From the sequence record NZ_CP033968.1: a stretch of DNA of 64,000 bases; one strand, given 5' to 3'. Below the pieces are notes generated by a model. That model searched no databases, was not told the origin of the DNA, and saw nothing but the letters and a program-made list of their open reading frames with translations. This document shows positions 1,761 through 61,102 of this stretch, piece after piece (the first letter of the stretch is position 1; each line of letters begins with the position of its first letter). A program made the position numbers and the translations under genes. The DNA is from a plasmid.

Positions 1761-2258
1761 CGCGTATTGATAAACACACTGTTTGCTTGTTATAGTCAAG
1801 TCACGCGCGGTTTTTGGTGTTGCATTGGTCGCTGCCGATATGTGTGGGTTTGAAGTCGTTCAAGATCCCCGGCTTTTGGCCGTTTACCGGCATTGGGGCA
1901 TACCAGAGACTGCGAAGGACGGCCTTGGGGGCGTCGCATGGTGGGCAGGCGTGGTTGCGGAAGTCGCTGCCGTGATTCGGGCGAATAACGTGTCAGCCGC
2001 CGTCCAGGCAGTCCTGTTGTGGCACGCGGATCAGAGGTTGGCGAGACAGCGAGGGCAGCGACCTCGCGCGTTCGACGTGCCGCCCGAAACTCTCAAGGTG
2101 CGCGGTGTGTTCTGGAGGAACCTGCTCAATGGGAGCTTCCTGATGTTCATCGTAGGCTCTATTCCCTGCTGCATTGGGTTGTTCTTCATCAAGTTCGAGA
2201 ACAGCCCGAAGCGATAGCGATATCGCGGGCGGCCGGGCATTTAAGGAGGAAACTTCGG

Positions 2259-2684
2259 ATGAATCAAGTAACTGGTAGTGCGACGTCGCCAACGAAGTCG
2301 GTGTTTGATGCCTTTGGGGCGATTGGCTGTGGCCTATATGTCGGCGGCGTCGTTGCCGTCACGCTCTATTTCCTTCAGGAAGGCGGGATTCGCCTAACAG
2401 ACGGGCTTCCGGTTGCTGCAGTCGTCGCAGCGGCAGTAGCCGCTCTGTTGACGTTGGTCCGATGCGTGCTAACGGGCTTTTATGTGCCGTTGGCCTTGAT
2501 TGGCGTCTTCGTTCTCGGCTTTGGTGCTATCACGAAGATATCAGCCAACCTGCCTGATCCCACCGCCGGCGCTTTTGGCGCAGTTCAACTACGAATCGAT
2601 GGCGCAATGCCGTGGGTGTTTTTTGGTATCTGCATGATCGCCTTGGCGCTGGCGTGTTTGACGCCTCGGCAGGATCGTAACTAG
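2259..2684 (+). CDS. small integral membrane protein
   Basis: AAGGAGG RBS at 2243-2249, ATG 2259; 3-4 hydrophobic helices; in frame with the longer ORF-track call 2019..2684. Confidence 0.5.
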   Translation: MNQVTGSATSPTKSVFDAFGAIGCGLYVGGVVAVTLYFLQEGGIRLTDGLPVAAVVAAAVAALLTLVRCVLTGFYVPLALIGVFVLGFGAITKISANLPDPTAGAFGAVQLRIDGAMPWVFFGICMIALALACLTPRQDRN

Positions 2685-2703
2685 AGCTCTGGGGAGGGAG
2701 GAT

Positions 2704-2985
2704 ATGGATCGCGCATACGAAATCTGGAAAGCTTACGCAATGTCGGTTGTTGCGGTGGTGTTTGCCTACCTGGACAAGACAGATGATTGGGGTTGGCCCC
2801 CCGTCTTAGCTGTGGCCCTTCCATTGCTTCCTCTTCTCGCTGTCGACTGGTTTGTGTCCCGCTGGGTCTCACTGGGTTTGTTCTTGCCCGTTGGCCTGCC
2901 CATTGGATGGTTCGTTGGTTCTCTGTTCTGCGCCTATTTTGCAAGCGAGCAGGGATCGAACCGTGAAGTGAAGCGGCAGAGGTGA
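2704..2985 (+). CDS. small membrane protein
   Basis: GGGGAGGGAGGA RBS then ATG 2704; hydrophobic 93 aa. Confidence 0.5.
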   Translation: MDRAYEIWKAYAMSVVAVVFAYLDKTDDWGWPPVLAVALPLLPLLAVDWFVSRWVSLGLFLPVGLPIGWFVGSLFCAYFASEQGSNREVKRQR

Positions 2986-3019
2986 AGCGCACTGCCGACC
3001 GACCCCGTGAGGAGATGTC

Positions 3020-3616
3020 TTGACCATATGGGACTGGTTTTTCCCCGCGCGAAGGAAGCGCACGAGGGAAGGGTTGCCTTCGATCGATGTCTCCACCACG
3101 GCTGACTTCTATAAGGTCTTCACTTCACCGAACCCTGTTCTGAGTGCGGCGATCCACAACATAGCCGGCGACCAGGTTGGCACGGCCAGATACTCCATCT
3201 CGCCGCTGTCGGACCGCGTCTATGTCTTCGACATCAGAATTGCTCCACACCATCAGCGGCATGGCTATGGGACCGCAATGCTCTGCTACCTCGCAAAGGA
3301 GTATGGCCAGCCGATTACCCCCATCCACGAAGTTGAGAGCGCCAACGAGTTCTGGGGCGCCGCCCGTCGCTACAGGGGAGCCGGCCTTTCCGTAACCGAA
3401 GATATCTCGATCAGCGAGATGGCACTCGAGGCGACGCGTTGGCAGCATCTCGCGCCCATCGCAGAGTGCCTGGACAAACTGATCACTAGACGGCTGAGTG
3501 TCGATCGCGAACCCTGGCATGTTGCCGTTGGTCGCGGGTTTGGCGCGGAGGACAACGGCGACGCCGCTACTTCTGGGCCGGCGATATCGGACGATTCGAA
3601 TACTGTGAGAACATGA
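3020..3616 (+). CDS. GNAT-family N-acetyltransferase-like protein
   Basis: TTG start with GAGGAG RBS; motif VFDIRIAPHHQRHGYGTAMLCYLAKEYG resembles GNAT motif A (R/Q-x-x-G-x-G/A). Confidence 0.4.
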   Translation: MTIWDWFFPARRKRTREGLPSIDVSTTADFYKVFTSPNPVLSAAIHNIAGDQVGTARYSISPLSDRVYVFDIRIAPHHQRHGYGTAMLCYLAKEYGQPITPIHEVESANEFWGAARRYRGAGLSVTEDISISEMALEATRWQHLAPIAECLDKLITRRLSVDREPWHVAVGRGFGAEDNGDAATSGPAISDDSNTVRT

Positions 3617-3921
3617 GCAAACAAGAGAAGTTCTACGACTGGCTCTCGACTGGGGAGCCACCACCCATCAATAGGCGCGTCTACGAGGCAGCCAAGCTGC
3701 CGTTTGCATACTTGGCGCAGTTCCTGTGGTGGGTCTCTTCCCCTTGGCGCCGAGCTCTTCCACTGGCGCTCGCGGGCGTTGCTCTCCTCTGTGGCTTTTT
3801 GATCCTGATGGGGGATGAAACCATTACTTGGGGCGACTTCGGGACGGTCGCTACCGTCGCAACAGTTGTTCTGGGCGTAGTCGTCGTGATTCTCGACGTG
3901 CTGAGGGCAATATTCGAGTAA
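3613..3921 (+). CDS. small membrane protein
   Basis: ATGA overlap with upstream stop; 2-3 TM helices. Confidence 0.4.
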   Translation: MSKQEKFYDWLSTGEPPPINRRVYEAAKLPFAYLAQFLWWVSSPWRRALPLALAGVALLCGFLILMGDETITWGDFGTVATVATVVLGVVVVILDVLRAIFE

Positions 3922-3955
3922 CGCTCCGCACTTCACTCCTATTGGGACGTTTTCA

Positions 3956-4690
3956 ATGAGCACAAGCCGGGCTACTCGCCGAGATCCTATGGCAGACGTC
4001 ATGCCACTCGAGCTTCTGGAAGTGGCGCATCTGCTGATCAGTAGAGGTCAGAATGAACTCTACTGGGAAAGAGTTCCCCTCCCGAAGCGACCGGTCGGCC
4101 AGGTCCGCTACGAAGTGGCTCGCCAGGCAGCGACCTTTGTTGTGCCATTGGTAGGTCTAACCTGCGCCGCGCAGATCTACGGGGCAACTGGCTTGCTGCT
4201 TGGGCTGCCGCTTGCATGGCTAGGCGGCTACTTCTTGGATCTGCAACTCAAGTCTGCGATTGGGAAGAAGAAGATTCGTGATGACATGATTGACGCTGGC
4301 CGCTACAAGGCGGTGGGCTGGCTGGCTGCGCAGATGGGTATGCGCCCAGACGAGATCACACTGGCGACGATCCGGAAGATGAACAAGGATTACGTCATTG
4401 TTAAGGCGCGTATGGACCTGGAGTTGGCTCGCCGCGAGGAAGCCCGCAAGGCCGCTCACGTACGGCAGTCGCCGTCCTCCGATGATGTGCATCATGATTA
4501 CACTCCGGGGGTAGTCGCTGCCGCCGGATTGGGTGCGGCAACCGCCTACACGTCAGTAGACGAAGATGACGACTACTATGATCGAGGCCAATCCTACTCG
4601 CCGGCCGTGAACCCTGCTAACGGGATGCCGATGGTTGCTGGCACCTATGTGGACGTCAACGGCAATATGTTTGGAACTGACACGTTCTGA
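3956..4690 (+). CDS. hypothetical membrane protein
   Basis: 244-aa ORF, two central TM helices, Asp/Tyr-rich C-terminus. Confidence 0.4.
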   Translation: MSTSRATRRDPMADVMPLELLEVAHLLISRGQNELYWERVPLPKRPVGQVRYEVARQAATFVVPLVGLTCAAQIYGATGLLLGLPLAWLGGYFLDLQLKSAIGKKKIRDDMIDAGRYKAVGWLAAQMGMRPDEITLATIRKMNKDYVIVKARMDLELARREEARKAAHVRQSPSSDDVHHDYTPGVVAAAGLGAATAYTSVDEDDDYYDRGQSYSPAVNPANGMPMVAGTYVDVNGNMFGTDTF

Positions 4691-4759
4691 CGCCGGGATA
4701 TTTTGGACTTCGCGGAGCGCGCAGCCCGCGGAGAAGAGGGCGCCCGAACCGGAGCACGC

Positions 4760-5929
4760 ATGCGTCGCCATAGCCTGACCCTCACGCTGGCAAAGATCCT
4801 ATTCAAGGACGGGCCCGTGAAGTTCTTCCAGCTCGTCTACATCCTCGGCCGTTCGAAGCTACGGCGGACCTATGATTCCCACACACGGCGCTTTCTCCAA
4901 GCCGGCCACGCCGCGTTACTCGCCGCGGGTGTGATAGTGCTGTGGCTCGCTGTGCGAGATCCATCCCTGATCGATGCGAGGTCTACGGCCGGCCGGATCT
5001 TCTGCGGAGCGATCGGCATGGCTTTTACCCTGAGCGGTGCGACGTGGTTTCTCATGCCGGCATTTCAACGAGCGACGCTGCTGGGGGAGGTGACGGCCGG
5101 CACGTTGTACGGGATGCTCCTCGCCGGTGTCACGTGGTTGGGTTGGGAGCGTGCGGCGGCGCTCTACCAGGCCAATCCTGTAGCGTTAGTCGCTGGAGTA
5201 CTCGTCGTCGCGGCGCTTGTGCTGGCGTTTGCCCATCCGCTCTCGCTCTTTCTGCGTTTCCGATTGCTGCGGCTGCGCACCAATCACTATGCGTTCGAGA
5301 CCCCATATCACCAGATGCTCGCTTCGCGCCCAGCTAGAGGGCAGTACAGAGGCGTGGCAATTCATGAGGCTGGCCATGCTCTGATGTACAGCTTGGGCGA
5401 TCGGGTGCCAGAGGACGCGATCGCCTATATTGACTTCGACACCATCTCGCCGAACCTGGGGCAGGTTTCGCTGCCAACTCTGAAGGAGGGTGATATCAGC
5501 ATGGCCATGCTGGAGTGGAAAATGCATACATACCTCGCTGGAATGGTAGCGGAGGTTTTGCGTGCAGGGACTCACGGCATGGGCGTGTCCGGAGACCTCG
5601 AGGGCTGGAGTGAGCTAGTTGGCCCATACCTCTTGTTGCGCACCGATGTTGTGTACTTCGCCAATCCAAGTACCGAGCTGGAGATCGAGTCCAACAAGAG
5701 GGAGGTTGCAGCGTTGAAGAAACACATGCTGGCAGTGCTCACACGCTTTATGCGGGCAAACTGGCATGTCGTCGAGCGGATCGCTGACTGCCTTGAGGAG
5801 GTGGACTGCCTTGATCACCAGCAGTTGGCTGGCCTGATTTCTGGCGTGGTGCGCACGGGCGGGCTGCCGACGCCAGTTTGGCCAGACCACATGGATGGCA
5901 CGCCGCTGCGCCAGATCCCGGGCGCTTGA
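4760..5929 (+). CDS. membrane-anchored FtsH-like (peptidase M41) zinc metallopeptidase domain protein, no AAA+ module
   Basis: N-terminal multi-TM region then VAIHEAGHALMYSL (HExxH as in FtsH TAYHEAGHA); GGAG RBS before ATG 4760; a TTG at 4703 is an alternative start. Confidence 0.55.
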   Translation: MRRHSLTLTLAKILFKDGPVKFFQLVYILGRSKLRRTYDSHTRRFLQAGHAALLAAGVIVLWLAVRDPSLIDARSTAGRIFCGAIGMAFTLSGATWFLMPAFQRATLLGEVTAGTLYGMLLAGVTWLGWERAAALYQANPVALVAGVLVVAALVLAFAHPLSLFLRFRLLRLRTNHYAFETPYHQMLASRPARGQYRGVAIHEAGHALMYSLGDRVPEDAIAYIDFDTISPNLGQVSLPTLKEGDISMAMLEWKMHTYLAGMVAEVLRAGTHGMGVSGDLEGWSELVGPYLLLRTDVVYFANPSTELEIESNKREVAALKKHMLAVLTRFMRANWHVVERIADCLEEVDCLDHQQLAGLISGVVRTGGLPTPVWPDHMDGTPLRQIPGA

Positions 5930-5993: not shown

Positions 5994-6173
5994 TTAAGAG
6001 CGCTGTTTCCGAAAGCCATGCAGGGAATCCTGCTTTTCCTTGTTCTGTTCGGTCGGTGTGCGGCGAGCTTCTTTGCGCACTGCCTGGATAGCACCGACTA
6101 GAGGTGCGAAGAACAGACGCGGGGCTTCCCGAGCTGCGGTAACAAACTCCGAGCGAAAGCTGGTCTTGGTCAT
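5994..6173 (-). CDS. small hypothetical protein (59 aa, below ORF-track cutoff)
   Basis: AAGGAGAtgctcgaATG RBS; ATGA overlap with the stop of upstream membrane-protein gene; translation MTKTSFRSEFVTAAREAPRLFFAPLVGAIQAVRKEARRTPTEQNKEKQDSLHGFRKQRS. Confidence 0.35.
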   Translation of the reverse strand: MTKTSFRSEFVTAAREAPRLFFAPLVGAIQAVRKEARRTPTEQNKEKQDSLHGFRKQRS

Positions 6174-6442: not shown

Positions 6443-7061
6443 GTTTCTCCTGTGTTGAGTTAAGCACCTGGGAACCCCAGGGCTCCAAGCCTCCTTGCAT
6501 AGACCTGGCAACACAGGAATGCGCAACGCCTGGGGATAAGTTGGGGTGGTGCCTCAATGGACGTCGCCGGCCGGCCGATAGACAGAAGACCATTCAGTAG
6601 AACGTGAGCGTCACCGCCAACGAGTTGCTGCAGGATTTGGACCCGCTCGGCCCGCAGCGGCTGCTTGCCACCTTCGCACGATTTGCTGTCATCTTGACAA
6701 ATAGCACTCAATCGAACAAGATGCATAACATGTAGGTATATGCGTTGAGTATAGCAATAGCGATATTTGCTCAGTCGACAGGGCCATGCGGAAATGTTGC
6801 GGCGCATGTTGAGCGCCGGCGATGGTGTAGTCATCCTCCGCATCACCGGGGATCTCGAGCGGCATCATCCGAATGTTGAGATCTTCGAAGGTTGGGAGGG
6901 CTATCAGCGATTCTTGGCGCCAATCCTGCGCAGCGGGAAGCTTCAGAAGGGCGATGGGAGTACGCTGCTTTAACTGCATCGAGTTCGTTTTTGCGGCACG
7001 ACACGGAATTGCTCACGTTTGCGGCACTGATCAACGACGCTTGGGCATAGAAATCGCAACC

Positions 7062-7679
7062 ATGACTGCCACAATCGAAACACCGCTTGCCGCTGTGGGC
7101 AAAGCGATCAGCGGGATCAAGGCCAAGCATCCTGAACCTGATGCGGGCGGACGCGTTCCGAACGCGCAGATAGTAGAGTTCCATGAACGCCAGGTCGACG
7201 CTTGGCGTGCGCAGGCAGCGGAAGCCAGCCTGCTGGCACAGCACAAGTCAGAGTCAGGTGAGTCTGAGCTGGCGCTCGTACTATCGGAATGGAGCGAGCG
7301 GACGATGCGCGCAGCCGATGAGAGAGCTAGATATCTCACGTCTGCAGAGTATCAAGAATGGCTCGCGGGCCGGCAGGAGTGGTTGGCGGAGGCCACCGTT
7401 GACACGGTCGCAGCCGACAATAGCAAACGGGCGTGCGCGTTCGGCAAGGGTGTACGCGTCGTGATCGCTGAGGACATTGATAGGCGGTTCTGGCGCTATC
7501 GGTCAGGCCAGACCGGTACGGTCAGGTATGTGCTCGATGATGGCGGCGTGGAAGTACTGCTCGACGGCTACAAACGCGAAAAGCTATCCAACTGGTGGCG
7601 TCGCATCTGGCGAGGCGAAGGCGCCAACCTGGTCCCTTGGCGCGGCGTGTTCAAGGCCTCGGAATTGCGAGTCATTTGA
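7062..7679 (+). CDS. hypothetical protein
   Basis: ORF 6873..7679; internal ATG 7062 (MTATIETPL...) preferred but start uncertain, no clear SD. Confidence 0.35.
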   Translation: MTATIETPLAAVGKAISGIKAKHPEPDAGGRVPNAQIVEFHERQVDAWRAQAAEASLLAQHKSESGESELALVLSEWSERTMRAADERARYLTSAEYQEWLAGRQEWLAEATVDTVAADNSKRACAFGKGVRVVIAEDIDRRFWRYRSGQTGTVRYVLDDGGVEVLLDGYKREKLSNWWRRIWRGEGANLVPWRGVFKASELRVI

Positions 7680-18237: not shown

Positions 18238-18457
18238 TGTTCATTCCTGCACGGTGTGCCGTTATCGTTCCTTGGTCAATCTACGGGCGATCGTGAATCT
18301 CGGCAAGTGGCGAATGGGACACTATTCACTCAATGAAATTTTTCTAGCTAAAACATACATTTCGACGAGGGTATTTGCGCGCGGAATGATGTTTTTTGTG
18401 TGAGGCACGTATTCGGTCGGAAGGTGCGCGGAGACGAATCGAGTCCAGATAACGGTT

Positions 18458-19192
18458 CTACTCAGAATCCGCGGCCTCGGCGCGGCCTTCCGCCCATGCC
18501 TGCAACAGGATAGGCTCGTCGGCAAACATGATGGGGGGCTCATCCAGGCCTGCGTGGTAGTCACGTCTACCGACGGCCTCAGCTGCTCTCTCGACGGCCT
18601 CCCTTTCACTGCGCCATTCCTCAGGGTAGGCAATGCGGGTGATGCGTGCCAGCGCGAGAGCAATCCGCTCGTCCAGCCCTCGCATGCGAGGGGCAGGTGG
18701 CTTCGGGCGGGATTTCGGCGCCGGCAACATTCCGAAATGGGCCTGAGAAATTGATACTCGCCGACGAAGGTGGGTCGCCTGAGCTCGAAGCCCCTTCGCG
18801 GTACTGAAGTTATCCCAGCCAGCCTCGATGGACGCTTCAGACGCGAGTTCACCGGCCTGGGTAAGCATTGCGGCCCATTGCTCGGGTGAGTCAAACTCGG
18901 TTAGCCAGCCATTCCCCTCATAGCATTGAAGGACCGCCTCGTCGCAGTTCAGGAGGAGGACGCGGCTCGGCGTGAACTGGCCGTCGTACTCTTCGTATTC
19001 GTCCGCTGACCTCGACTCGGCGTGATACCGCTGCCACGCTGATTCAGCGAGGGCCTTGCCATCCGTCATTGAAAGCGGATGACTGATCGGCACCTGCCGG
19101 CGGCCATCCATGTAGAAGTACGCGAGCCCTGGATGCTCGTCGTACATGTCTCGGCATACCTGGCCCTCTACAACAATGCTGGAGACCTGCAT
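18458..19192 (-). CDS. hypothetical protein
   Basis: 244-aa ORF, acidic. Confidence 0.45.
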   Translation of the reverse strand: MQVSSIVVEGQVCRDMYDEHPGLAYFYMDGRRQVPISHPLSMTDGKALAESAWQRYHAESRSADEYEEYDGQFTPSRVLLLNCDEAVLQCYEGNGWLTEFDSPEQWAAMLTQAGELASEASIEAGWDNFSTAKGLRAQATHLRRRVSISQAHFGMLPAPKSRPKPPAPRMRGLDERIALALARITRIAYPEEWRSEREAVERAAEAVGRRDYHAGLDEPPIMFADEPILLQAWAEGRAEAADSE

Positions 19193-20708: not shown

Positions 20709-20969
20709 TCAGAACGGCATCGGCGGCAGCAATGGGCTGGCCAAGGACAACAGCACGACCACAATCACCGCCGCAAATCCGGCACTCCATCGGCGTTGGG
20801 TAATCATCATTGCCCCCGCAATGATGCACGCAGCGGCTGGCAACAGACCTTTGAGGAGGCCCAGCCAGTAGCCCAAGCCACAAAGACAAATTGCGAAAAC
20901 CAGTCCAGCCACGCCTGCCATCTTGGATCGATCAGCTGCTTCCATTTTCCCCTCCGAAGGCGAGCGCAA
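20709..20969 (-). CDS. small membrane protein
   Basis: hydrophobic 86-aa ORF; start uncertain. Confidence 0.3.
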   Translation of the reverse strand: MRSPSEGKMEAADRSKMAGVAGLVFAICLCGLGYWLGLLKGLLPAAACIIAGAMMITQRRWSAGFAAVIVVVLLSLASPLLPPMPF

Positions 20970-21030
20970 CGCACTCGGGTACTACCGGCTCCCGGCCGGT
21001 GCGGTGTGCTCCAATACAGGCACAGCGAAT

Positions 21031-21046
21031 ACAATACGCGTATTGT
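21031..21046. promoter_or_regulatory. 16-bp perfect palindrome ACAATACGCGTATTGT
   Basis: perfect dyad between two minus-strand genes; resembles CATAACGCGTA motifs at 45184 and 63242. Confidence 0.4.
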
Positions 21047-21073
21047 TACCTGTTATTGTAAATTTCGTCAAGT

Positions 21074-22280: not shown

Positions 22281-23720
22281 TCAAGCGAACGGAGCGTCGA
22301 TCGGCATCTTCCTGAGCAACGTTGTGGTCAGCGAGAAATAACCCCCCTCCAGGCGCGGGGCGTAGTCACGCACCCATTGCGCTGCGAGAGGCGAGCGGAG
22401 CGCGGCCTCGACTCGATCAAGCACGCCAGGCTCACCGCACACGATGCTCAGGTTGTGGTTGATCGGCAGAATGCCGGGCGGGACGCGCACGGCCTTAGGC
22501 GACGTGGCGATCCGCGGCACGAGCAATGTCTCGCGGGACAGATCCATGCGGTGAAAGGTCTCCGGCGGTAGCCAGAAGGTACCCCGCCGGCCCCGTGCCG
22601 CCATCTTGTGCATATGGCGCTGCAAGTGCTCAATCAGGCGATTGCACGGCGTCACACCAGGCGCCGTCCTGATGGCGAATCGCCGCGGCGTGCAAAGGCG
22701 GCCGTCGACAATGTCATCGGTGTCGACCGCTGGCACCAGGTACTCGCCCGGCAGCGTCGCGGCCGTTTCTTTGTCCACCACAAAGATCCCGGAAGAGCCG
22801 AGCCATGGTGCGATGCGTACCTGGGCGAACTGTTCCAGCGTTGGAAGGCCTTCATAACGGCTTTCGTCGACGCCTGGATAGATTGGCCGCTCCGTAAGCA
22901 CGCGAAAATCGTGCGAACGCTGCGGAGGCTCGGCCGTCGCCTTCAGCACGACAGACACAGGGTGAACCCGCGGGGGCGTGCCCGAGCGACGGTTCTTCGG
23001 GCGATAGAACACCGAGCTTGAATCCAACCGTTCAAGGTGGGAAATGGCAAGCCGGGTCCCTAAGGTCGCGCGAAGTTCCGCGGCCCCGGCATTCAGGAGC
23101 CAACGATCGGCAGTTACAAACCCGATCTGACCATCCGGATGAATGGCACGACTGCAACGCTCCAGGAAGCTATGCAGAAGATCTTTCGCAGCGAAATCCG
23201 GGACATGGCCGGAATAGAGGTCCTGCAGAACGGGCGGGACGTTGACCCAGCGCAGGTAGGGCGGATTGCCGGCGACAACGTGATAGACGGCCGTTTGCGG
23301 CCCGTCAGTCAGGAAATCCCGGTTATGGACCATCGACTCGGCCACTTTGGTGGCAGTCGCGTGGTCATAGCCATGTCGGCACAGCGTAGCTGCGACACGT
23401 GCACGCGCCTCGATGCACGCGCCTGCGTGCACCTCCCAGCCCTCGACTTGCGCCAGCAGACTGGCGCTTGTTAGGCGCGAGTGCTTGCTGGCTGCAAGGA
23501 GCTTTCCAAGGGCACGCTCAAGGAACATGCCGTCACCGCAGCTCGGGTCGACCAGCCGGCGCCCATCCCGAGGCCAGTCAAGCCGCCCAAGGAGTTGGTC
23601 CACCACCGGCCCCGCGGTATAGATCGCCGTCGCCTGGTGCAGTCGCTCAACCGCTTCTGCTCGAGCCTGATCAATTTGGCTGTGCTGTGACTGCCGATAC
23701 TCAGTGATTTCGGTCTGCAT
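22281..23720 (-). CDS. N6-adenine DNA methyltransferase (gamma class)
   Basis: motif I LVDPSCGDGMFL followed by motif IV VVAGNPPY; ~300-aa C-terminal putative target-recognition region; start at MQTEI (ORF-track call extends to 23849). Confidence 0.75.
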   Translation of the reverse strand: MQTEITEYRQSQHSQIDQARAEAVERLHQATAIYTAGPVVDQLLGRLDWPRDGRRLVDPSCGDGMFLERALGKLLAASKHSRLTSASLLAQVEGWEVHAGACIEARARVAATLCRHGYDHATATKVAESMVHNRDFLTDGPQTAVYHVVAGNPPYLRWVNVPPVLQDLYSGHVPDFAAKDLLHSFLERCSRAIHPDGQIGFVTADRWLLNAGAAELRATLGTRLAISHLERLDSSSVFYRPKNRRSGTPPRVHPVSVVLKATAEPPQRSHDFRVLTERPIYPGVDESRYEGLPTLEQFAQVRIAPWLGSSGIFVVDKETAATLPGEYLVPAVDTDDIVDGRLCTPRRFAIRTAPGVTPCNRLIEHLQRHMHKMAARGRRGTFWLPPETFHRMDLSRETLLVPRIATSPKAVRVPPGILPINHNLSIVCGEPGVLDRVEAALRSPLAAQWVRDYAPRLEGGYFSLTTTLLRKMPIDAPFA

Positions 23721-23955: not shown

Positions 23956-24071
23956 GTAGTGCGCCCCCTCTCTCTATGCAGAGCTCTGGCAAGGACAAAA
24001 CGATCAGCCGACAGGCCGGTGGATGTCTGCCGCTCTCACTCTGGCGACGATTTTGCGTATGATATAGTATA

Positions 24072-24088
24072 GATACGTGTTACGTATC
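24072..24088. promoter_or_regulatory. operator-like inverted repeat GATACG-N5-CGTATC
   Basis: GATACGTGTTACGTATC; same architecture at 62716-62732; half-sites recur in other intergenic regions. Confidence 0.45.
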
Positions 24089-24122
24089 GAAGCGTATGTA
24101 TTCGACGACATCACTACCGCCC

Positions 24123-24464
24123 ATGAACCAACTAGTCAGTGAACCAGCGCCACCACAGACGGTGGAATCCGAGGCCCTCTTCCTGTGTGGTGAGGCGTTC
24201 ATGCAGATTCGCAAGCTCAGCGGGATCGTGGCAGAGCCAAAGCCTCGCCGCGGCGTTTTCGGACGATTTTCCCCAACTGATCGGGGTGCGGCGGATCGCC
24301 GTTCCAGGGCCGCCGCGTTGATCTACGAGCTTTCCGACGTCGCCCACAACCTGCCCGAGATGGTGAGGCTGGGGGTGCATACCAAACAGTTCGCCTACTT
24401 CTCTCAGCAAACGAACAAGCTTGCGGGGGCGCTAGTAGAGGCACGCAGCCTAGCGAGGATTTGA
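24123..24464 (+). CDS. hypothetical protein
   Basis: ORF 24096..24464; start 24096 or 24123. Confidence 0.4.
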   Translation: MNQLVSEPAPPQTVESEALFLCGEAFMQIRKLSGIVAEPKPRRGVFGRFSPTDRGAADRRSRAAALIYELSDVAHNLPEMVRLGVHTKQFAYFSQQTNKLAGALVEARSLARI

Positions 24465-24466
24465 CT

Positions 24467-24946
24467 ATGGAGATCAGTTACACCGGTCTTGTGGTCGTCT
24501 GCGCGATCCTCGCGGTGCTCGTCTACCTCGTCGTCAAGAGGCTGCAGTCGGGGTCGAAGTACTCCCCCAAACACTACCAAACGATCCCACTGTTGACCGA
24601 GCATGAGCAGGACTTGTTCTGGCGCCTGAAAGAGGCCGCCGGCCGGGACCTGATCGTCGCACCACAGGTGGTGTTTGGAGCGTTCCTCAAGGTCAAGACC
24701 ATGGCGTTGGTCGACAAGACAAAGGCGCGTCACCAGGTGGCCCACAACCGCGGCGACTTCATCGTCTGCAACAAGGAATTCCGTGTGGTCGCTGTCATCG
24801 AGCTCGACGACGCGACGCATGACAAGAGCGCGCAGAAGGCGCTTGACCGCCGCCGCGACCAGCTGCTGAAGACCGTAGGGGTCAAGGCAATCCGGTACCG
24901 GAAGATGCCTGAGGTCGCGAAGATCCGTGCGGATCTCGGGCTTTGA
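24467..24946 (+). CDS. membrane-anchored DUF2726 (restriction-endonuclease-like fold) protein
   Basis: N-terminal TM helix; LLTEHEQDLFWRLKEA...FIVCNKEFRVVAVIELDDATH matches the DUF2726 core; GCGAGGA RBS. Confidence 0.6.
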   Translation: MEISYTGLVVVCAILAVLVYLVVKRLQSGSKYSPKHYQTIPLLTEHEQDLFWRLKEAAGRDLIVAPQVVFGAFLKVKTMALVDKTKARHQVAHNRGDFIVCNKEFRVVAVIELDDATHDKSAQKALDRRRDQLLKTVGVKAIRYRKMPEVAKIRADLGL

Positions 24947-25350
24947 GTATCTCCACAATACCTACCAGTATGATCATGCTCCACTCAATCGGCTTCGTCC
25001 TTCTCTCTGCTGCGGCAATCGCGGTTCTCTACTTCCTCTGGCGCAAGACGCCCAAAGCCCCGGTACTGCTGGAAGATCGCGTGGCTGCAAGCCTGTCCCA
25101 TTTCGGCATCGTCATTGCCCTGGCGCTTGGAATCGGGGCAGTTGTCCTCATTGACGAAGAGCTCCTGTCGGCATGCCGTTGGGTTGCGTCATTTGTGCCG
25201 GAGACAAACTCGCCGCTTGACGCTGTGCCGGTCACGATTCTTGACCTGGCCGGCAGCTTTGGCATTGTTGCTGCGATCTTCGCCGCGGCGCTGCTCATTG
25301 CTATCGCTGACGATCGCGCCCGTCCCTGTTCCTTGCCCGTAGGCCGGTGA
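24943..25350 (+). CDS. integral membrane protein
   Basis: ATGA overlap; 4 TM helices. Confidence 0.5.
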   Translation: MSISTIPTSMIMLHSIGFVLLSAAAIAVLYFLWRKTPKAPVLLEDRVAASLSHFGIVIALALGIGAVVLIDEELLSACRWVASFVPETNSPLDAVPVTILDLAGSFGIVAAIFAAALLIAIADDRARPCSLPVGR

Positions 25351-25835
25351 CCATGGACAGGCTCGAGCTTCTTTCGACCGCAATGCGAGCGGGTTGCTTC
25401 TATGCGGTCTACCGGTTGGTGATCGCGATCTTCTACCCTTGGCTTGCCAGTGCTGTGTGGCAAGAGTCGGTGGGGCCGCTGCTGGTGAGGCACTGGCCCA
25501 GGCTGGCGCAAGCTGATGACGCAGCGAGGATGTCGTATCTGCCTTCTCGACAGAGCGAGCCGGCGGTCTTCCGCCTTGGCACGCTCTCTATCAGCGATGT
25601 GACTCAGGGGGTTCGGGACGGGCTGCTGCTCGGCGTGCTCGCGGCGCTTGTGCCAGAGATCGTTCGGCCGTTCTTCTTGACGTCGCTACTTGCCTTCGTC
25701 CTCGCAATTCAAGGCTGGCGGTTTGCCCGAGCGCAAGGCGCTGCGGCCACCGACATCGGGTTTGACGCGGTGAGGGACGTTCTGCTGTTCGCCGGCGCGA
25801 TCGCCGCGGTGCAGTGGAGTGGGGTGCTTGCGTAG
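25347..25835 (+). CDS. integral membrane protein
   Basis: ATGA overlap; 4 TM helices. Confidence 0.5.
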   Translation: MTMDRLELLSTAMRAGCFYAVYRLVIAIFYPWLASAVWQESVGPLLVRHWPRLAQADDAARMSYLPSRQSEPAVFRLGTLSISDVTQGVRDGLLLGVLAALVPEIVRPFFLTSLLAFVLAIQGWRFARAQGAAATDIGFDAVRDVLLFAGAIAAVQWSGVLA

Positions 25836-25885
25836 AGGCGGCGAGCAGCGCCGCAGTTCGTCAAGTGAGATAGGGGAGGTCTGTC

Positions 25886-26734
25886 ATGTCCATCAACGCT
25901 CAGTCGCAACGAAGCATCAAGATCCTCCTCAATCTGTCGGCGGGACTTGAGGAAACCGGGCGTACCTACCCAGACGGTGTTGTGAGATTGAACTCCAACA
26001 TCCGCCACGCCGCTGCCGCCGGCGCCGCGGCCCTCAGCCAGCTGCAGGGGGTGCCACTGCCGACCGTGCCTGAGAAGGCGGGTGCCGCCGCTGACGCAAG
26101 GAAGCGCGCACCCGAGGCCGGGCCGGTCGAGATGCCGTCGCCAGTCGAATGGCTGGATCGCCTCAAGCTCGCCAAGGGCTTCCATGCGGACGTCACCCTT
26201 GCCGAGTATCTCGGCGTGTCGAAGCAGCATTTTTCGCAATGGCGCACTGGGAAGGCGTCGCTGTCCGTGGACGAAGCCTGGAAAGTCGCACTGGGTCTGG
26301 ATGTCGATCCGCTGCTTGTCATCGCCAGCGTTCAATTCCACGCCAGCCAGAATGACAAGCGCCAGGTCTGGATAGATCTCGCGCGCACACGGCTGGTGGG
26401 GACATCCGACGGTGCGACGCCCAAGGCAGACACTGATCGCGCTCCTGGGCTGGAATCCAAGGGATCGAAGTGGTCGCCGGAGGAAGATGCGCTCCTCAAG
26501 GATGAGGTTGAGCGCAAGGTGCCCTACGTTGACATCGCAGCTTCGCATCGCCGCTCGGTGGCCGCCATTCTTTACAGGCTGTACAACGTGCACGATCTGT
26601 TGGGCGATGCTGAGATGGAAGAGCTCTGCGGCCTCCACTCTGTTCGGTTCTCGCCGAAGGCAGTAGCCCCCGCTGAAGAGTCGAGTGCCAAGCCTGAAGA
26701 CCCCCCTGTAGCGGGCGATCGGGTCTTCATCTGA
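25886..26734 (+). CDS. HTH (XRE/Cro-CI-like) DNA-binding protein
   Basis: GGGGAGG RBS; LAEYLGVSKQHFSQWRTGKASLSVDEAWKVALGL helix-turn-helix. Confidence 0.55.
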   Translation: MSINAQSQRSIKILLNLSAGLEETGRTYPDGVVRLNSNIRHAAAAGAAALSQLQGVPLPTVPEKAGAAADARKRAPEAGPVEMPSPVEWLDRLKLAKGFHADVTLAEYLGVSKQHFSQWRTGKASLSVDEAWKVALGLDVDPLLVIASVQFHASQNDKRQVWIDLARTRLVGTSDGATPKADTDRAPGLESKGSKWSPEEDALLKDEVERKVPYVDIAASHRRSVAAILYRLYNVHDLLGDAEMEELCGLHSVRFSPKAVAPAEESSAKPEDPPVAGDRVFI

Positions 26735-29845: not shown

Positions 29846-31528
29846 ATGGGTGGCCCTGTCGTGCTTGTCGACTTCGAGAATGTGCAGGCGATCGATTTTG
29901 GGCGGCTAGCGCCGGACACCCGCATCGCCGTGTTCGCGGGCGAGCTGCAGCGGAAAGTACCGATCGAGGTGGCCATGGGGCTGCAGGAGATGGGGGAGCG
30001 CGCTCGCTGGGTGCGCTCGAGCGGCACCGGTCCAAACGCACTTGACTTTCATATTGCCTTCGAGCTCGGCCGAATGGCGCAGGCTGGTGAGCAGGGACCG
30101 GTGGTGGTCCTGTCTCGGGACAAGGGCTTTGATCCGCTACTCGATTGGCTCCGGACTCAGCACGGAATCCCCGCCAGCCGTGTTACGACCATCGCAGAAG
30201 CATTCGGATACACTCCAGACGCCCCATACGCGCCGCAGGCAGCAGAGCCGATTGTGGTTGACTTTGGGGCCGTGACGCCGGCGCCAAGGCCGACGCAACC
30301 GGCCTTGCAGAGCAATGGCATGCATGTCGCGGAACCGCATTTCATGCGATCCCTTCAGGCAGAGGCAAGCAGCGTGGTTCCAAGGTCGGTACCCCAGGCA
30401 GTGCCTGTGCCGGCGAGCAAAGCGGTTGGCGCCAGTGGCGCGATGCACAGTACAGAAAAGCGCCGCCTTCGTTGGTACCAGCAGACTCTCAGGCGGGCTG
30501 GCGTCCTTGAGCGTGTCGAGGGTGAGAGGGGGGTTTGGAAGCTCGCCGATGCGGCGAGCAAGGATCTGTGCAAGGCGCAGGCGACGACGAAACTGGTTGC
30601 CTTCAGTACAGATCTCGGCGTCGCAATATGGAGCAAGGCCGAAAGCACCTTCCCCAGTTTTGACGAGCCGATCGCGCTCGTGGTCACTTCGACTCCATAT
30701 CCATTGAGACGGCCGCGTGCGTACGGGAACCCGACGGAGGCCGATTTCGTTGACTTCATCTGCCATGCTGTAGAGCCGATTGCCAAAAATCTGATCCCGG
30801 GCGCCTCAGTGATATTGAACATTGGCCTGGATATCTTCGAGGAAGGGAGCCCGGCGCGTTCTCTTTACCCTGAACGGCTTACTCTGGCCCTGCGCGATCG
30901 ACTCGGATTGAGCCTTATGGACCGCATCCCCTGGGTGAACTACTCGAAGCCGCCGGGCCCCACGTACTGGGCCTGTGTGAAGCGGGTCCAGCTCTCCGCC
31001 GCATATGAGCAGGTGCTCTGGCTGACAAACGATCCAATGAGGGTCCGATCCGATAACCGGCGCGTACTTGAACCGCATACAGATCGACACTTGGAGCTCA
31101 TGCAGAGCGGCGGCGCCAACCGGACTGCAGTCTACGGGGACGGAGCATACCGACTGCGGCCAAACTCCTTTGGCAAGGTCACTTCCGGCAAGATTCCGCG
31201 AAACGTCATAGAGCGCGGTCATGCCTGTTCGGACACACGCGCCTATCGCCAGCATGCGAAGGCGCTTGGCCTTCCGATTCACGGCGCCATGCAGCCGACC
31301 GATATCGCGGACTTCTTTATCCGCCTCTGCACAGAACCTGGTGAGTTGGTGGTTGACCTCTTTGCCGGGACCGTGAAGACGGGGCTGGCAGCAGAACGCC
31401 TGGGCAGGCGGTGGCTGGTGACCGAAATGATGCTCTCCTACCTCCGAGGTGCGGCGGAGATGTTCCGCGGTGCGCCTGGATTCGATCTCAATCCTGCGCT
31501 CGAGTGTGTCGGTGGGATGCGCAGCTGA
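29846..31528 (+). CDS. NYN/PIN-like domain fused to beta-class N6/N4 DNA methyltransferase
   Basis: N-terminus VVLVDFENV...DFHIAFEL (NYN-like); motif IV VVTSTPYP then C-terminal motif I VVDLFAGTVKTG (N6_N4 methyltransferase order); start 29846 (ORF-track 29735). Confidence 0.7.
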   Translation: MGGPVVLVDFENVQAIDFGRLAPDTRIAVFAGELQRKVPIEVAMGLQEMGERARWVRSSGTGPNALDFHIAFELGRMAQAGEQGPVVVLSRDKGFDPLLDWLRTQHGIPASRVTTIAEAFGYTPDAPYAPQAAEPIVVDFGAVTPAPRPTQPALQSNGMHVAEPHFMRSLQAEASSVVPRSVPQAVPVPASKAVGASGAMHSTEKRRLRWYQQTLRRAGVLERVEGERGVWKLADAASKDLCKAQATTKLVAFSTDLGVAIWSKAESTFPSFDEPIALVVTSTPYPLRRPRAYGNPTEADFVDFICHAVEPIAKNLIPGASVILNIGLDIFEEGSPARSLYPERLTLALRDRLGLSLMDRIPWVNYSKPPGPTYWACVKRVQLSAAYEQVLWLTNDPMRVRSDNRRVLEPHTDRHLELMQSGGANRTAVYGDGAYRLRPNSFGKVTSGKIPRNVIERGHACSDTRAYRQHAKALGLPIHGAMQPTDIADFFIRLCTEPGELVVDLFAGTVKTGLAAERLGRRWLVTEMMLSYLRGAAEMFRGAPGFDLNPALECVGGMRS

Positions 31529-32931: not shown

Positions 32932-33414
32932 ATGCTGTCACTGGCCCTCAACTATCCGACGATCGAGTTCAACACCAACGCCTGCGGCGAACTGCATACC
33001 GGCGATGCTCCACAAGGCATCCTGGCTGCCGTTCCGTTCCAGGATGGCCCCGGGTATGTACTCCCGTACCTGACGACGATCAATGATCGCTTTTATGTTC
33101 TTGGCAACCTGGAAGTCGCCTTCAGTGATGAGAAGTTCTGGGGCAGGGATGCTGAGGATCTGCCGGACGAGGAGCTTGTCATGTCCGAGTGCACGCAAGC
33201 TGTCCTGGCTATGCGAGAACGGGCATCGGGCTCCATGATCGTCTTTCCGGTGGACTTCGATCCCATGCCGGCACGCTGCGTCATCTCCGTGGCCATTCCC
33301 GTGCAGGATGGCCAAACCCAACGGGAAATCAAGGATCAGCTGTCCCTTGTTTTCTCCGGCTACGAGCAGCTCGACGATAGGCTGATGAAGCTTGTCAGGG
33401 CTCGGTCGCATTGA
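32932..33414 (+). CDS. hypothetical protein
   Basis: AAGGAGA RBS; 160 aa. Confidence 0.45.
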   Translation: MLSLALNYPTIEFNTNACGELHTGDAPQGILAAVPFQDGPGYVLPYLTTINDRFYVLGNLEVAFSDEKFWGRDAEDLPDEELVMSECTQAVLAMRERASGSMIVFPVDFDPMPARCVISVAIPVQDGQTQREIKDQLSLVFSGYEQLDDRLMKLVRARSH

Positions 33415-33417
33415 CCG

Positions 33418-33462
33418 CTAACCCACCGCCCGCAGACACGATTCGTGCTGCGGGCTTTTTTC
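33418..33462 (+). repeat. terminator-like hairpin repeat, copy 1 of 3
   Basis: CTAACCCAcCGCCCGCAGACACGATTCGTGCTGCGGGCTTTTTT; near-identical copies at 35370 and 35911. Confidence 0.6.
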
Positions 33463-33649
33463 TTATCCCCGCAAGTGTACGCCGGCGCCCGCCGGCGCCA
33501 CGCCGTCTCCCCTTGCTTGAACCTGTGGCGCATACCTTCAGCGTCAAGACATCGACTCTGGCTAGATCAGGTCAACACCTACTATTCACCCACGCGGGGA
33601 AGCGCCTCCCGCTTGGGGCGCACTTCGCACGCAAATCTGGAGAAGCGAA

Positions 33650-34303: not shown

Positions 34304-35356
34304 ATGGCGCCCCCGTATCCCAAAAAGTTACTTGACGCTGTGCTGCATCCCTCCCAGGTCAAATCAACCTTGGAGTGCTGCGATATGAATGGAGAGACGA
34401 TGGGAATGCCGGTAGGGCAGGTGAATGCGATCCTGGAAGATGAGTTGGTCATGCGGATTGGCATCCCGCACCGCGGTGGCCGCCTGGCCTTCCACGCATT
34501 CGAGCAAGGCTACCCGGCGATGGTGAGCGCGAACGCGTTCTGGAACCCAACGAAGCGAGAGTTTGTGATGCCGGCGGCGACGGATCTGACTGAGATGGAT
34601 TTTGCCCTAGACTCAGCTGGTTACTCGGCGATCAGTCTTTGGCAGAAGAAGGGCCGACAAGACGGCATTGCTGGCGTCTATCCATGGTCCCTCGAGCAAT
34701 ACCTGGAGTTTGCAAATCTGTGTGGTGCTCGCTGGATGTCTAGTCCAGACCTTTGCTGCGAGCCGCAGGTTGCGGGCAACCAAGAGGAAGTGGACTACCG
34801 CGTGAACACAACGGCAACTTTGCTGGAGGCGTCGTTACGAGTGTTGTACGAGTGGCAGAACAGGCTCGCAAGGACGCTAACTGCGCGCGAAGTGGCGAAC
34901 ATGATCAAGCCAGTCGTTCCCGTGCTACAGGGTTGGAATTGTGACACGTATCTACGGAGTCTCGATCTAACAATGCAAGTATGGGAGCGCTGGCAACCGT
35001 GGCTGGCCCCACCCGCTCTAATCGGTGTCGGTTCAGTATGCCGGCGTTCGCTGAATCACCCTACTCACGGCCTGTACGCCATTCTCTCGGGATTGGAGGG
35101 ACGGTTGCCTAAGGGTGTTCGCGCTCACTTGTTCGGTGTCAAGGGGAGCTGTCTCGCGGAGCTCAAGATGATGGATTGGATCGCTTCCGCGGATTCCATG
35201 GCGTATGACTTCGGCGCCCGAGTGAAAGCTCGGGAGAGTGGAGTCTCGAACACGGTCAAGCATCGCTCTTCAGAGATGAGTCGATGGATGTCATCGGCCT
35301 CGTCTCGCCTCAAGCCTGCACCCGGTGACCAATTCCGATTGAGCCTGGCCCATTGA
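34304..35356 (+). CDS. TGT-fold (tRNA-guanine transglycosylase-like) protein, possible DpdA-like DNA transglycosylase
   Basis: FVMPAATD and LDSAGYSA resemble TGT motifs FMPVGT and DSGGFQ; no C-terminal Zn cluster; alternative start 34385 with GGAG RBS. Confidence 0.35.
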   Translation: MAPPYPKKLLDAVLHPSQVKSTLECCDMNGETMGMPVGQVNAILEDELVMRIGIPHRGGRLAFHAFEQGYPAMVSANAFWNPTKREFVMPAATDLTEMDFALDSAGYSAISLWQKKGRQDGIAGVYPWSLEQYLEFANLCGARWMSSPDLCCEPQVAGNQEEVDYRVNTTATLLEASLRVLYEWQNRLARTLTAREVANMIKPVVPVLQGWNCDTYLRSLDLTMQVWERWQPWLAPPALIGVGSVCRRSLNHPTHGLYAILSGLEGRLPKGVRAHLFGVKGSCLAELKMMDWIASADSMAYDFGARVKARESGVSNTVKHRSSEMSRWMSSASSRLKPAPGDQFRLSLAH

Positions 35357-35369
35357 TTACCAACCTACA

Positions 35370-35407
35370 GCCCGCAGACACGAATTTCGTGCTGCGGGCT
35401 TTCATTT
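35370..35407 (+). repeat. terminator-like hairpin repeat, copy 2
   Basis: GCCCGCAGACACGAATTTCGTGCTGCGGGCTTTCATTT. Confidence 0.6.
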
Positions 35408-35508
35408 ATGTGACGGCGGGCAAAGGGCAAAGGTGGCGCTCAGCCCCGCGCGTTTGCATGATTCTGTGCCGCATATCTCCCAAGTCAACACAACTATGGA
35501 GTAGCGCG

Positions 35509-35790: not shown

Positions 35791-35910
35791 CGGTATGTAG
35801 CCGCGCAGCTATCTCGGCGGATGTGTTCACCCGCCTCGCGCCACAAGCCCGCAGGTTCCGGATGAGCTTGCTTGTGTACGCGGAGAAGAGTCAGTCGGCC
35901 GTACCGATCG

Positions 35911-35966
35911 CTAACCCAATCGCCCGCAGACACGATGTTTCGTGCCGCGGGCTTTGCCTTTTTTGG
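35911..35966 (+). repeat. terminator-like hairpin repeat, copy 3
   Basis: CTAACCCAATCGCCCGCAGACACGATGTTTCGTGCCGCGGGCTTTGCCTTTTTTGG. Confidence 0.6.
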
Positions 35967-36168
35967 GGCGCAAAAGGTCGGTGAACGGGCAGCAGCGCAT
36001 TTGAGCTCCACCTGGCCGGTGAAGTTGTGGTTGGCTGTGCTGCATACCTCCCGAGCAAGAGTAAACCGGCATGTTGACACCCGTTCAACTGAGCGCTTCC
36101 GACCTATGCGAGGTTGAGCGTTGCTGGGTTCCCAAATGGACTTAGGAGGATGTGATGGAGCAAGTGAA

Positions 36169-48135: not shown

Positions 48136-48186
48136 CCTCTGGTGCTCTGCACATGGTGTGTTGCACGCGCCTAAAATTCGCTGTTG

Positions 48187-48200
48187 ACGTATCGATACGT
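48187..48200. promoter_or_regulatory. palindrome ACGTATCGATACGT (everted CGTATC/GATACG half-sites) within promoter-like region
   Basis: TTGACGTATCGATACGTGTTATGTAGCAT upstream of the 48238 gene. Confidence 0.4.
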
Positions 48201-48237
48201 GTTATGTAGCATAAGAACCGTTGAGTAACCGAAAAGG

Positions 48238-48548: not shown

Positions 48549-48608
48549 GCTCGAACATCGTGAGCCTTCCACTGAGCGTGTATTGCTACGCGATATGAAG
48601 CGAGATAG

Positions 48609-52526: not shown

Positions 52527-52614
52527 AAGAACATGTTCGCGGCAAAACGATACCTAACAGGTACAAACACGACTAGAATAGCGATCTGATACAACGGCCA
52601 CACAGGAATTCCCC

Positions 52615-53398: not shown

Positions 53399-53480
53399 TT
53401 TTGGTCTTTCCATTTTTCGGCTTGACCAAAATAACAGTAACACGTAACAATACGGCAACTGAAGCCGTCAACTAAACAAG

Positions 53481-61056: not shown

Positions 61057-61102
61057 TTCTGATCCTGGACGTTTGCCGATTCTTTACGGCAACTTTGGAA
61101 AA

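Follow-up and report, generated by a model that had tools for sequence, protein, structure and literature searches.

The window analysed here, 64,000 nucleotides of plasmid sequence record NZ_CP033968.1, carries in its intergenic regions a repeated element of about 33 bp which is probably the operator of a plasmid-encoded repressor that serves many backbone promoters of a family of conjugative megaplasmids. Motif-bearing members of this family include pMOL30 and BS1 p1 (Cupriavidus), pBVIE01 (Burkholderia), RPME01 (Methylibium) and the IncpSTY plasmids (Pseudomonas). We infer that all sites answer to one regulator, and that this regulator represses. A protein bound between -35 and +1 would exclude RNA polymerase by steric occlusion, and one such factor could hold down the orphan DNA methyltransferases, a small membrane protein, dsbC-traW-traU, parM, the uvrD operon and many genes without known function.

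Megablast comparison identified the window as part of a pMOL30-family conjugative megaplasmid of Cupriavidus. It was 100% identical to plasmid p1 of C. metallidurans BS1 (NZ_CP037902.1) except for IS66 copies and one deletion. Its identity to C. campinensis and Cupriavidus sp. EM10 plasmids was 93–96%; pMOL30 shares it only in part. A search with the window sequence found no phage match. Most of the genes encode hypothetical proteins, accompanied by several orphan DNA methyltransferases, H-NS, HU, toxin-antitoxin pairs and two XRE-type regulators. Pfam recognised almost nothing among 30 proteins encoded near the sites, except for the helix-turn-helix (HTH) proteins and one M50 peptidase.

Identification and anatomy of the motif

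The original prediction had described a recurrent palindrome, GATACG-N5-CGTATC, present in two copies of the same architecture, together with a number of related strings. The pattern itself matched twice in the window against 0.00 expected (100 shuffles), and by chance 0.10 matches were expected for ATAC-N7-GTAT and 0.08 for TACSYGTTAYG, which were found three and six times, respectively. The copy GATACGTGTTACGTATC is present at 24072-24088; GATACGCGGTTCGTATC is real as well, but it lies at 62717-62733 and the position 62716 given for its first base was one off. Both copies were said to be followed by ATACGTGTTA, a 10-mer that occurs three times in the window (at 24073, 48195 and 62735). This is correct for the 62717 site, but at 24072 the 10-mer sits within the palindrome. 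The related strings at 48187-48208, 45196-45210 and 41517-41533 are present as written, and the string TATGCGTATC exists too, at 37673-37682 and not at 37668-37677.

Intergenic DNA, taken from the RefSeq annotation of BS1 p1 mapped onto the window, makes up 18.4% of the sequence. An expectation-maximisation motif search of all these intergenic regions, seeded at every position, converged on a single 18-bp motif, GTATnnnTACsTGTTATG, which is the top intergenic motif of the window; the only other motif that emerged was the intrinsic-terminator signal. A matrix trained on the window gave 14 sites of at least 16 bits, after which the scores dropped to 5.7 bits. In order to avoid circularity, an independent matrix was built from the sites of pBVIE01 and of pHN39-SIM (an IncpSTY plasmid of P. 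aeruginosa) alone, and used with a threshold of 8 bits. This matrix yielded 16 matches in the window, where Markov simulations gave an expectation of 0.59 for the whole window and 0.14 for its intergenic DNA. All 16 were intergenic. Likewise, TGTTATG was found 8 times in intergenic and 0 times in coding DNA, in line with the proposal that the motif is a feature of intergenic regions.

Alignment of 63 sites from three plasmid families gave the consensus RATAC-N6-KTATnSnTACGTGTTATGnATC for the element of about 33 bp. It is composed of two adjoining 17-bp dyads, ATAC-N7-GTAT, and is asymmetric overall; the motif as listed below is 22 bp long, and about sixteen promoters of the window carry it. 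Dyad 1 has a free spacer. Dyad 2 has a near-invariant asymmetric centre, GTGTTAT, which is the best conserved part of the site. ATAC-N7-GTAT dyads are over-represented and can be seen in the 63-site profile, although the right arm of the consensus reads GnAT. The palindromes first noticed are both symmetric, as claimed, but they occupy different dyads of one larger element: the copy at 24072 is a dyad 2 and that at 62717 a dyad 1. They are the rare fully symmetric copies of the two-dyad element.

Position relative to mapped transcription starts

A total of 5,763 transcription start sites have been mapped in strain CH34, those of pMOL30 included (Grosse et al. 2022, PMC9045368), and the supplement of that study was used here. 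For five of the seven start-associated motif sites of pMOL30 the motif covers the core promoter. It occupies -31 to -14 at TSS_38587+, which is classed as a strong RpoD promoter with -35 TTGACGTATC and -10 TGTAGCATAA and corresponds to the 48189 site of the window; -12 to +6 at TSS_19137+; and -6 to +12 at TSS_36162+ (window site 45179), TSS_23533+ (window site 6720) and TSS_9976+. The two other sites lie upstream of the core promoter, at -58 to -41 from TSS_16390+ and at -80 to -63 from TSS_13858-. Where the motif is inverted (three cases), transcription begins at base 7 of CATAAC[R]CGTA. At the three sites shared by pMOL30 and the window the promoters match from the -35 hexamer onward, with 89, 99 and 100 of 100 bases identical overall (99/100 at the 45179 site and 100/100 at the 6720 site). 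A relation between the motif and transcription starts was part of the original proposal, and the mapped starts of pMOL30 do fall on or beside the motif.

A simple sigma-70 promoter-pattern scan of the window gave 17 promoter-like matches, a number equal to the chance expectation. Six of these, at five loci (48184, 45153, 53422, 21082 on the minus strand, and 1767), touch motif sites, in differing registers. The starts at 38587 and 36162 were predicted to the exact base from the promoter scan before the published data were checked. Because the element lies on real promoters, mostly in positions where a bound protein would exclude RNA polymerase, and in either orientation, it is regarded as an operator and not as a promoter element.

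Lying just upstream of many genes, and with a TGTTATG that superficially resembles an extended -10 (TGnTAT...), the motif could itself be taken for a promoter element read by an alternative sigma factor or a plasmid-specific polymerase. This is barely credible, since the sites of BS1 p1 face either way relative to the gene (about 14 in the same and about 10 in the opposite orientation), the mapped starts lie at several distances from the motif, and the promoters are RpoD-classed with a -35 and a -10 of their own. Moreover, the consensus lacks the -7 T of the -10 hexamer in any register.

The two upstream sites of pMOL30 bear on another alternative, namely that the motif binds an activator or dual-function regulator which turns the backbone operons on, for instance after transfer to a new cell. 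Their positions are typical of activators, the starts that they accompany are strong (scores 265 and 574), and several motif-associated promoters have no good -35 hexamer. However, in the five other mapped cases the motif overlaps the spacer, the -10 or the +1, positions at which protein binding should block RNA polymerase. Register and orientation vary as well, and several targets are near-consensus sigma-70 promoters that need no activator. As a general explanation activation is therefore improbable; at the two upstream-placed sites, activation instead of repression is possible.

A structural signal was also considered, such as a leading-region hairpin (single-strand promoter of the Frpo/ssi type, or primosome hairpin), a terminator, a repeat for partition or replication, or a recombination site. 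Leading- or establishment-type genes (orphan methyltransferases, H-NS, HU) are plentiful in the region, mainly on one strand, and the best site of pMOL30 lies between parS-like repeats and rep. Nevertheless, the DNA surrounding the sites (100-nt windows) forms less stable folds than randomly chosen intergenic DNA does (-24.7 vs -31.9 kcal/mol), the sites occur singly and are not arrayed, and the parS-like repeat has another sequence. The position on mapped promoters accounts for the data, which makes a structural role very unlikely.

Distribution and conservation

For the motif scan of BS1 p1, 356 of its 364 kb were assembled. About 32 matches of at least 15 bits were found, all of them within 56-274 kb, the backbone of the plasmid, which comprises transfer genes, parM, uvrD, the rep/par region and the block of genes without known function from which the window derives. 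The sites precede tra, parM, uvrD and methyltransferase genes, among others of the backbone. The czc metal-resistance, transposon, type VI secretion system-like and catabolic segments contained zero matches in the 356 kb scanned. The notion of a regulator controlling many operons across an island was borne out as far as the many promoters are concerned. The replicon, however, is a conjugative megaplasmid backbone and not an island, and the regulon exceeds the window.

Against a chance expectation of approximately 0.05–0.1 per 50 kb, matches of at least 15 bits numbered 17 in 98 kb of pBVIE01 (B. vietnamiensis G4) and 14 in 100 kb of pHN39-SIM; all 28 matches of at least 16 bits in these two plasmids were intergenic. 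RPME01 contained 7 intergenic sites in 40 kb. The motif is abundant also in a Stenotrophomonas plasmid related to pHN39-SIM, but its sites are nearly identical to those of pHN39-SIM and carry little weight.

Proteins common to the window and the relatives pBVIE01, RPME01 and pHN39-SIM are merely 36–63% identical. Orthologous sites precede the DUF2726 operon (the 24067 site of the window) in three families, including pBVIE01 and pHN39-SIM, and an orthologous site lies upstream of dsbC-traW-traU. Upstream of parM an identical 18-mer is found in Cupriavidus and Pseudomonas. The best site of both the window and pBVIE01 stands before the small membrane-protein gene, 52 and 54 nt from the start codon; the protein (48241-48498) is 57% identical to its pBVIE01 ortholog, and the operator geometry is kept. 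In orthologous uvrD operons the site lies 72 and 71 nt before the start codon in the same orientation, and the pBVIE01 ortholog of gene 52615 is preceded, at 37 nt, by a site that is inverted as in the window. The pBVIE01 counterpart of the divergent region at 37672 also has a site, with its orientation flipped. In comparison with C. campinensis, motif positions differ by 2.0% and flanks by 6.2% (Fisher p = 0.014), a difference which points to purifying selection on the motif.

A strong operator was further seen before each of several unrelated orphan DNA methyltransferase genes of different plasmids (window 53481-54365; 3071-4831 of record L012; BS1 p1 168650-169906). This suggests that anti-restriction methylation belongs to the regulon.

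Candidate regulators

Three XRE-family candidates are conserved in the plasmid family. HTH1 (25886-26734, plus strand; 282 aa) has a Cro/CI-type HTH at about residues 86-153 and a C-terminal three-helix module. HTH2 (57521-58279, plus strand; 252 aa) carries two XRE-type HTH modules in tandem behind an N-terminal beta-beta-beta-alpha domain. The third, WP_011514827, is Rmet_6162 in pMOL30 and is encoded outside the window (BS1 p1 63170-63793). By Pfam all three contain an XRE/Cro-type HTH (HTH_3, HTH_31, HTH_19 or Phage_CI_repr), with Phage_CI_repr and HTH_3 matching HTH1, and HTH_31 and HTH_3 matching HTH2. Pfam found an S24 peptidase domain in none of the three, and NCBIfam and PDB sequence searches found a characterised relative for none of them.

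Fold searches with the models of HTH1 and HTH2 returned only HTH modules (434 Cro, P22 c2, C.AhdI, SinR), all with E >0.01. The HTH1 model matched 434 Cro and C.AhdI; the matches of HTH2 were all XRE HTH domains, none of them significant (best E 0.22). A Myb-like reading of the C-terminus of HTH1 was rejected, the Pfam match being below threshold (E 0.027), as was an AP2-like reading of the N-domain of HTH2, for which Pfam support was not found. This N-domain is conserved (GISRDERP..AGWRVRL..G.YVANRHFRD), and its pairing with two XRE HTH modules in one chain is unusual.

The protein that reads the motif may well be the Rmet_6162-type XRE protein, an assignment in which our confidence is evenly balanced. 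It would presumably bind each dyad as a dimer. This type was present in 43 of 43 matching records, including pMOL30, RPME01, the Stenotrophomonas plasmids and CP026546, and is the only candidate in every motif-bearing plasmid found, HTH1 and HTH2 each being missing from some. Its recognition helix (TPIYWNS..GNR) is invariant in four plasmid families at 41–54% overall identity. An Aromatoleum plasmid encodes a 33%-identical homologue with a different helix, and there the motif is absent. In all four families the Rmet_6162 gene borders a conserved divergent region with a copy of the motif, and its promoter, TTGAAT-17-TAGAAT, is conserved with TGTTATG in the spacer. The start was predicted at pMOL30 138294-138295 and the published one is TSS_138295-, which ranks 50 of 5,763. 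In the published data Rmet_6162 has an NPKM (nucleotide activities normalised to the length of the exon model in kilobases and to millions of reads mapped) of 530, the highest value among the backbone genes examined; a role as an abundant repressor suits this high expression. Rmet_6162 itself was found in no searchable main text of the literature.

Clearly less probable is that the operator is read by an XRE protein encoded in the window, either HTH2, as a monomer on the asymmetric 22-bp site, or HTH1, with its CI-type HTH and Myb-like C-module. Both genes are conserved through the Cupriavidus, Burkholderia and Pseudomonas plasmids, and in the window, in pBVIE01 and in pHN39-SIM both are preceded by motif-bearing promoters; in the last, one site lies 34 nt before HTH1 and another 34 nt before a two-gene unit ending in HTH2. 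With its three predicted DNA-binding modules, HTH2 would also suit an asymmetric site that is used either way round. On the other hand, pMOL30 and RPME01 keep the motif while HTH1 and HTH2 are not detectable there, the motif-keeping Stenotrophomonas plasmids are without HTH1, and CP026546 is without HTH2. The recognition helices of both proteins vary between the families, whereas the motif is constant, and the AP2-like and Myb-like assignments found no adequate Pfam match.

One might also think of a composite element that is read by more than one XRE protein, with the Rmet_6162 type on the dyads and HTH2 or HTH1 on the GTGTTAT core. The genes of HTH1 and HTH2 are themselves located behind operator-bearing promoters. 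Such a layered switch is more doubtful still. If true, it would release the establishment block (orphan methyltransferases, nucleoid proteins and genes without known function) and the transfer genes just after entry into a new cell and then shut them down, and it would be conserved from Cupriavidus to the clinical Pseudomonas IncpSTY plasmids.

Several observations weigh against a repressor of the Rmet_6162 type acting at the motif. The two pMOL30 sites at -58 to -41 and -80 to -63 fit activation or a second, unmapped promoter, and for four pMOL30 motif sites, including the equivalent of the 48580 site, a start was not detected in the published 2022 data. The target promoters are active in pMOL30 despite the high expression of Rmet_6162, hence any repression would be partial. 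The pairing of Rmet_6162 with the motif is argued from presence and absence and from helix conservation, and it is weakened by the fact that all backbone genes co-occur with the motif to some degree. The loss of HTH1 and HTH2 from pMOL30 is recent and not decisive alone, so the distant RPME01 was added. Finally, the asymmetric, strongly conserved centre is unusual for a simple symmetric HTH dimer and would fit a multi-domain monomer such as HTH2 better.

Read as the operator of a plasmid-encoded repressor, the motif would unite dozens of backbone genes without known function in a single co-regulated set. Real promoters are marked by it (two were predicted base-exact before the published starts were consulted), and it directs attention to a small XRE protein with high expression that is likely to be the master switch of transfer, partition and establishment functions. 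The operator and its regulator could be of use for influencing plasmid spread or, as a compact repressor-operator pair, in engineering.

Probable operator sites in the window

The scores in this section are given in bits, with those of the independent matrix in brackets. The operator GTATAGATACGTGTTACGTATC at 24067-24088 (plus strand; 25.5 bits) is the best of the window by the independent matrix (31.1). This operator, whose dyad 2 (24072-24088) is the perfect palindrome, overlaps or abuts a predicted extended -10, TGaTATAGT (24060-24068), read from the sequence. The predicted promoter serves the operon 24123-26734, of which the XRE gene HTH1 is the last gene. At 53432-53453 (minus strand; 23.7 bits) the operator overlaps the spacer and -10 of TTGACC-18-AACAAT (53422-53451), a promoter that heads a same-strand gene run from the methyltransferase gene (53481) through HTH2 (57521-58279). 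Inside this run a weaker operator was found at 55558-55579 (plus strand; 13.8 bits [18.8]), upstream of 55635-56366.

The operator GTATCGATACGTGTTATGTAGC at 48189-48210 (plus strand; 26.8 bits) forms the spacer of the promoter TTGACG-17-TAGCAT (48184-48212), whose start maps to window position 48220. Its target is gene 48241-48498, which by its translation encodes an 85-aa two-helix membrane protein. The protein had been considered as an autoregulated repressor, and this was ruled out by its two-helix membrane character. With two hydrophobic helices, and under the strongest operator, the product is a small membrane protein, presumably under tight control, that may be toxic or serve as an exclusion factor.

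A two-dyad element at 45179-45212 (minus strand; 24.6 bits), of which the previously noticed string GATACGTGGTACGTA (45196-45210) is dyad 1, lies directly downstream of the promoter TTGGCA-17-TATGAT (45153-45181), and the transcription start of gene 45228-46514 (window 45189) falls within the element. Similarly, the operator at 6720-6741 (minus strand; 23.3 bits) covers the plus-strand start (window 6730) of the promoter TTGACA(6694)-17-CAAGAT(6717), with gene 7062-7679 downstream. The two-dyad element at 21029-21061 (plus strand; 25.6 bits), with dyad 1 ATACAATACGCGTAT at 21029-21043, overlaps the -10 and the start of a minus-strand promoter, ATGACA-16-TACAAT (21082-21055), upstream of 20709-20945 (minus strand). 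A weaker operator at 1752-1773 (minus strand; 16.6 bits [10.9]; BS1 210875) overlaps the -35 of TTGATA-18-TATAGT (1767-1796). The two-dyad element at 62717-62750 (plus strand; 19.6 bits [13.0]), made up of dyad 1 at 62717-62733 and dyad 2 TATACGTGTTAATCGTT at 62734-62750, stands at a distance of 73 nt from the start of gene 62129-62656 (minus strand), which encodes the M50 peptidase.

Two sites lie in divergent regions. The weaker one, at 37672-37693 (plus strand; 16.8 bits [9.4]), holds TATGCGTATC and separates 37079-37645 (minus strand) from 37727-38266 (plus strand). The other, at 41523-41544 (minus strand; 17.0 bits [16.1]), separates 40865-41497 (minus strand) from 41623-42174 (plus strand), and the string originally noticed at 41517-41533 is its reverse complement.

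Of the remaining operators, that at 48580-48601 (plus strand; 23.0 bits [20.2]) lies 59 nt upstream of gene 48639-49445, and that at 61099-61120 (minus strand; 25.2 bits [27.3]) 64 nt upstream of gene 60277-61056 (minus strand), in the same orientation as the gene. In opposite orientation are the operators at 52549-52570 (minus strand; 18.4 bits), 45 nt upstream of gene 52615-52851, and at 63235-63256 (minus strand; 24.0 bits [22.7]), 31 nt upstream of a plus-strand gene that begins at 63287. A weak site at 42942-42963 (minus strand), 26 nt upstream of gene 42989-43210, is doubtful: it scored 16.1 bits with the window-trained matrix and <8 with the independent one, and no motif site was found upstream of the pBVIE01 ortholog of this gene.

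Through the deletion relative to BS1 p1 (window 29846-31528), a PIN-domain gene has its start fused to the end of a gene for a DNA methyltransferase, which results in a single long open frame. The segment of BS1 p1 that is missing from the window contains three motif matches, at 169940, 172506 and, weaker and overlapping, 172493.

Other sequences of the backbone

Between parB and rep, pMOL30 (L013) contains at 2240-3150 about nine copies, with variants, of the 13-bp palindrome TTTCACGGTGAAA. This array is probably the plasmid centromere (parS). The best operator copy of pMOL30 (3185-3206) directly follows the array; downstream of this copy there is neither an annotated gene nor a mapped start.

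Another word conserved in intergenic DNA, CATAAATGGTTG(T/G)GC, is present in two copies upstream of the uvrD operon, both in BS1 p1 (approximately 227060-227200) and in pHN39-SIM (L018, approximately 18380-18512). It was not found in the window and may be the site of another regulator.

The window carries three copies of a module of about 60 bp, cattga..aacc....GCCCGCAGACACGa..tcgtgcYgcgggcttt, at 33400-33470, 35345-35415 and 35895-35970. The GCCCGCAGACACGa module is a conserved intrinsic-terminator hairpin with a conserved leader, and the copies stand after three successive genes.

In pMOL30, the 59-aa gene Rmet_6352 at 22796-22976 (window approximately 5994-6173, minus strand) has a very strong start, TSS_23019-, with a score of 1474 in the published data. 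Its NPKM of 439 is among the highest on the plasmid backbone.

Comparison with known systems

The megaplasmids of the pMOL30, pBVIE01, RPME01 and IncpSTY types carry metal resistance and catabolic pathways, and those of clinical Pseudomonas carry VIM, SIM and AFM carbapenemase genes (PMC8905914). Genes without known function make up the greater part of their backbones. The CH34 genome paper goes no further than noting a resemblance of the pMOL30 backbone to pBVIE01 and the many genes that are still enigmatic. The motif is not mentioned in the IncpSTY paper or in two start-site papers, and literature searches with the motif sequence, the plasmid names and the locus tag found no earlier description of the motif or regulon. 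Nor was a description found in the literature of how these backbones are regulated. The design of the regulon, a global plasmid regulator with many operators, is classical and known from IncP-1 KorA/KorB and from the IncW and IncN networks; for the operator sequence, the candidate proteins and this plasmid family nothing was found that covers them.

The closest parallels in design can be drawn with KorA and KorB of the IncP-1 plasmids (RK2/RP4), where one plasmid protein per high-information site acts at many backbone promoters, the core promoter is overlapped or flanked, and replication, partition, transfer and establishment genes are coordinated. However, the operators are unrelated to those of KorA (GTTTAGCTAAAC) and KorB (TTTAGCSGCTAAA). 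In the window, KorB-like sites numbered 0 and KorA-like sites 1, a chance-level match (up to 2 mismatches allowed), so the motif is not an IncP-1 KorA/KorB operator. KorB doubles as the ParB of its plasmid, whereas in the present family the parS-like repeat TTTCACGGTGAAA is separate from the motif, and the candidates belong to the XRE family with no detectable relation to KorA or KorB.

Operators of lambdoid phage CI/Cro repressors and of the controller (C) proteins of restriction-modification systems resemble the element in their 17-bp dyads, placed side by side on a promoter, and in the Cro/CI-type HTH of the proteins that read them, in our case of the candidates. They serve one or two switch promoters, whereas the present operators form a dispersed regulon and have an asymmetric, best conserved centre in dyad 2.

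The networks of R388 (IncW) and pKM101 (IncN) comprise ArdK, StbA, KorA and others, several regulators with few sites each on plasmids of 30–35 kb. As in our plasmids, their establishment or leading-region (anti-restriction) operons and transfer operons are preceded by repeated operators of plasmid repressors. In contrast, the system described here has one motif at no fewer than 30 promoters of a backbone of about 200 kb, in megaplasmids of Beta- and Gammaproteobacteria (relation to the R388 and pKM101 regulators compared via Pfam/NCBIfam only).

SetR/CI-type control and the AcaCD system parallel the proposed regulon in that the element encodes its own master regulator, which has a defined box at numerous promoters for transfer and maintenance. 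The AcaCD box of IncC belongs to an activator and has a fixed position, and SetR of SXT/R391 acts at one locus. Here, by contrast, the position and orientation of the operator vary from promoter to promoter, and the core promoter is overlapped.

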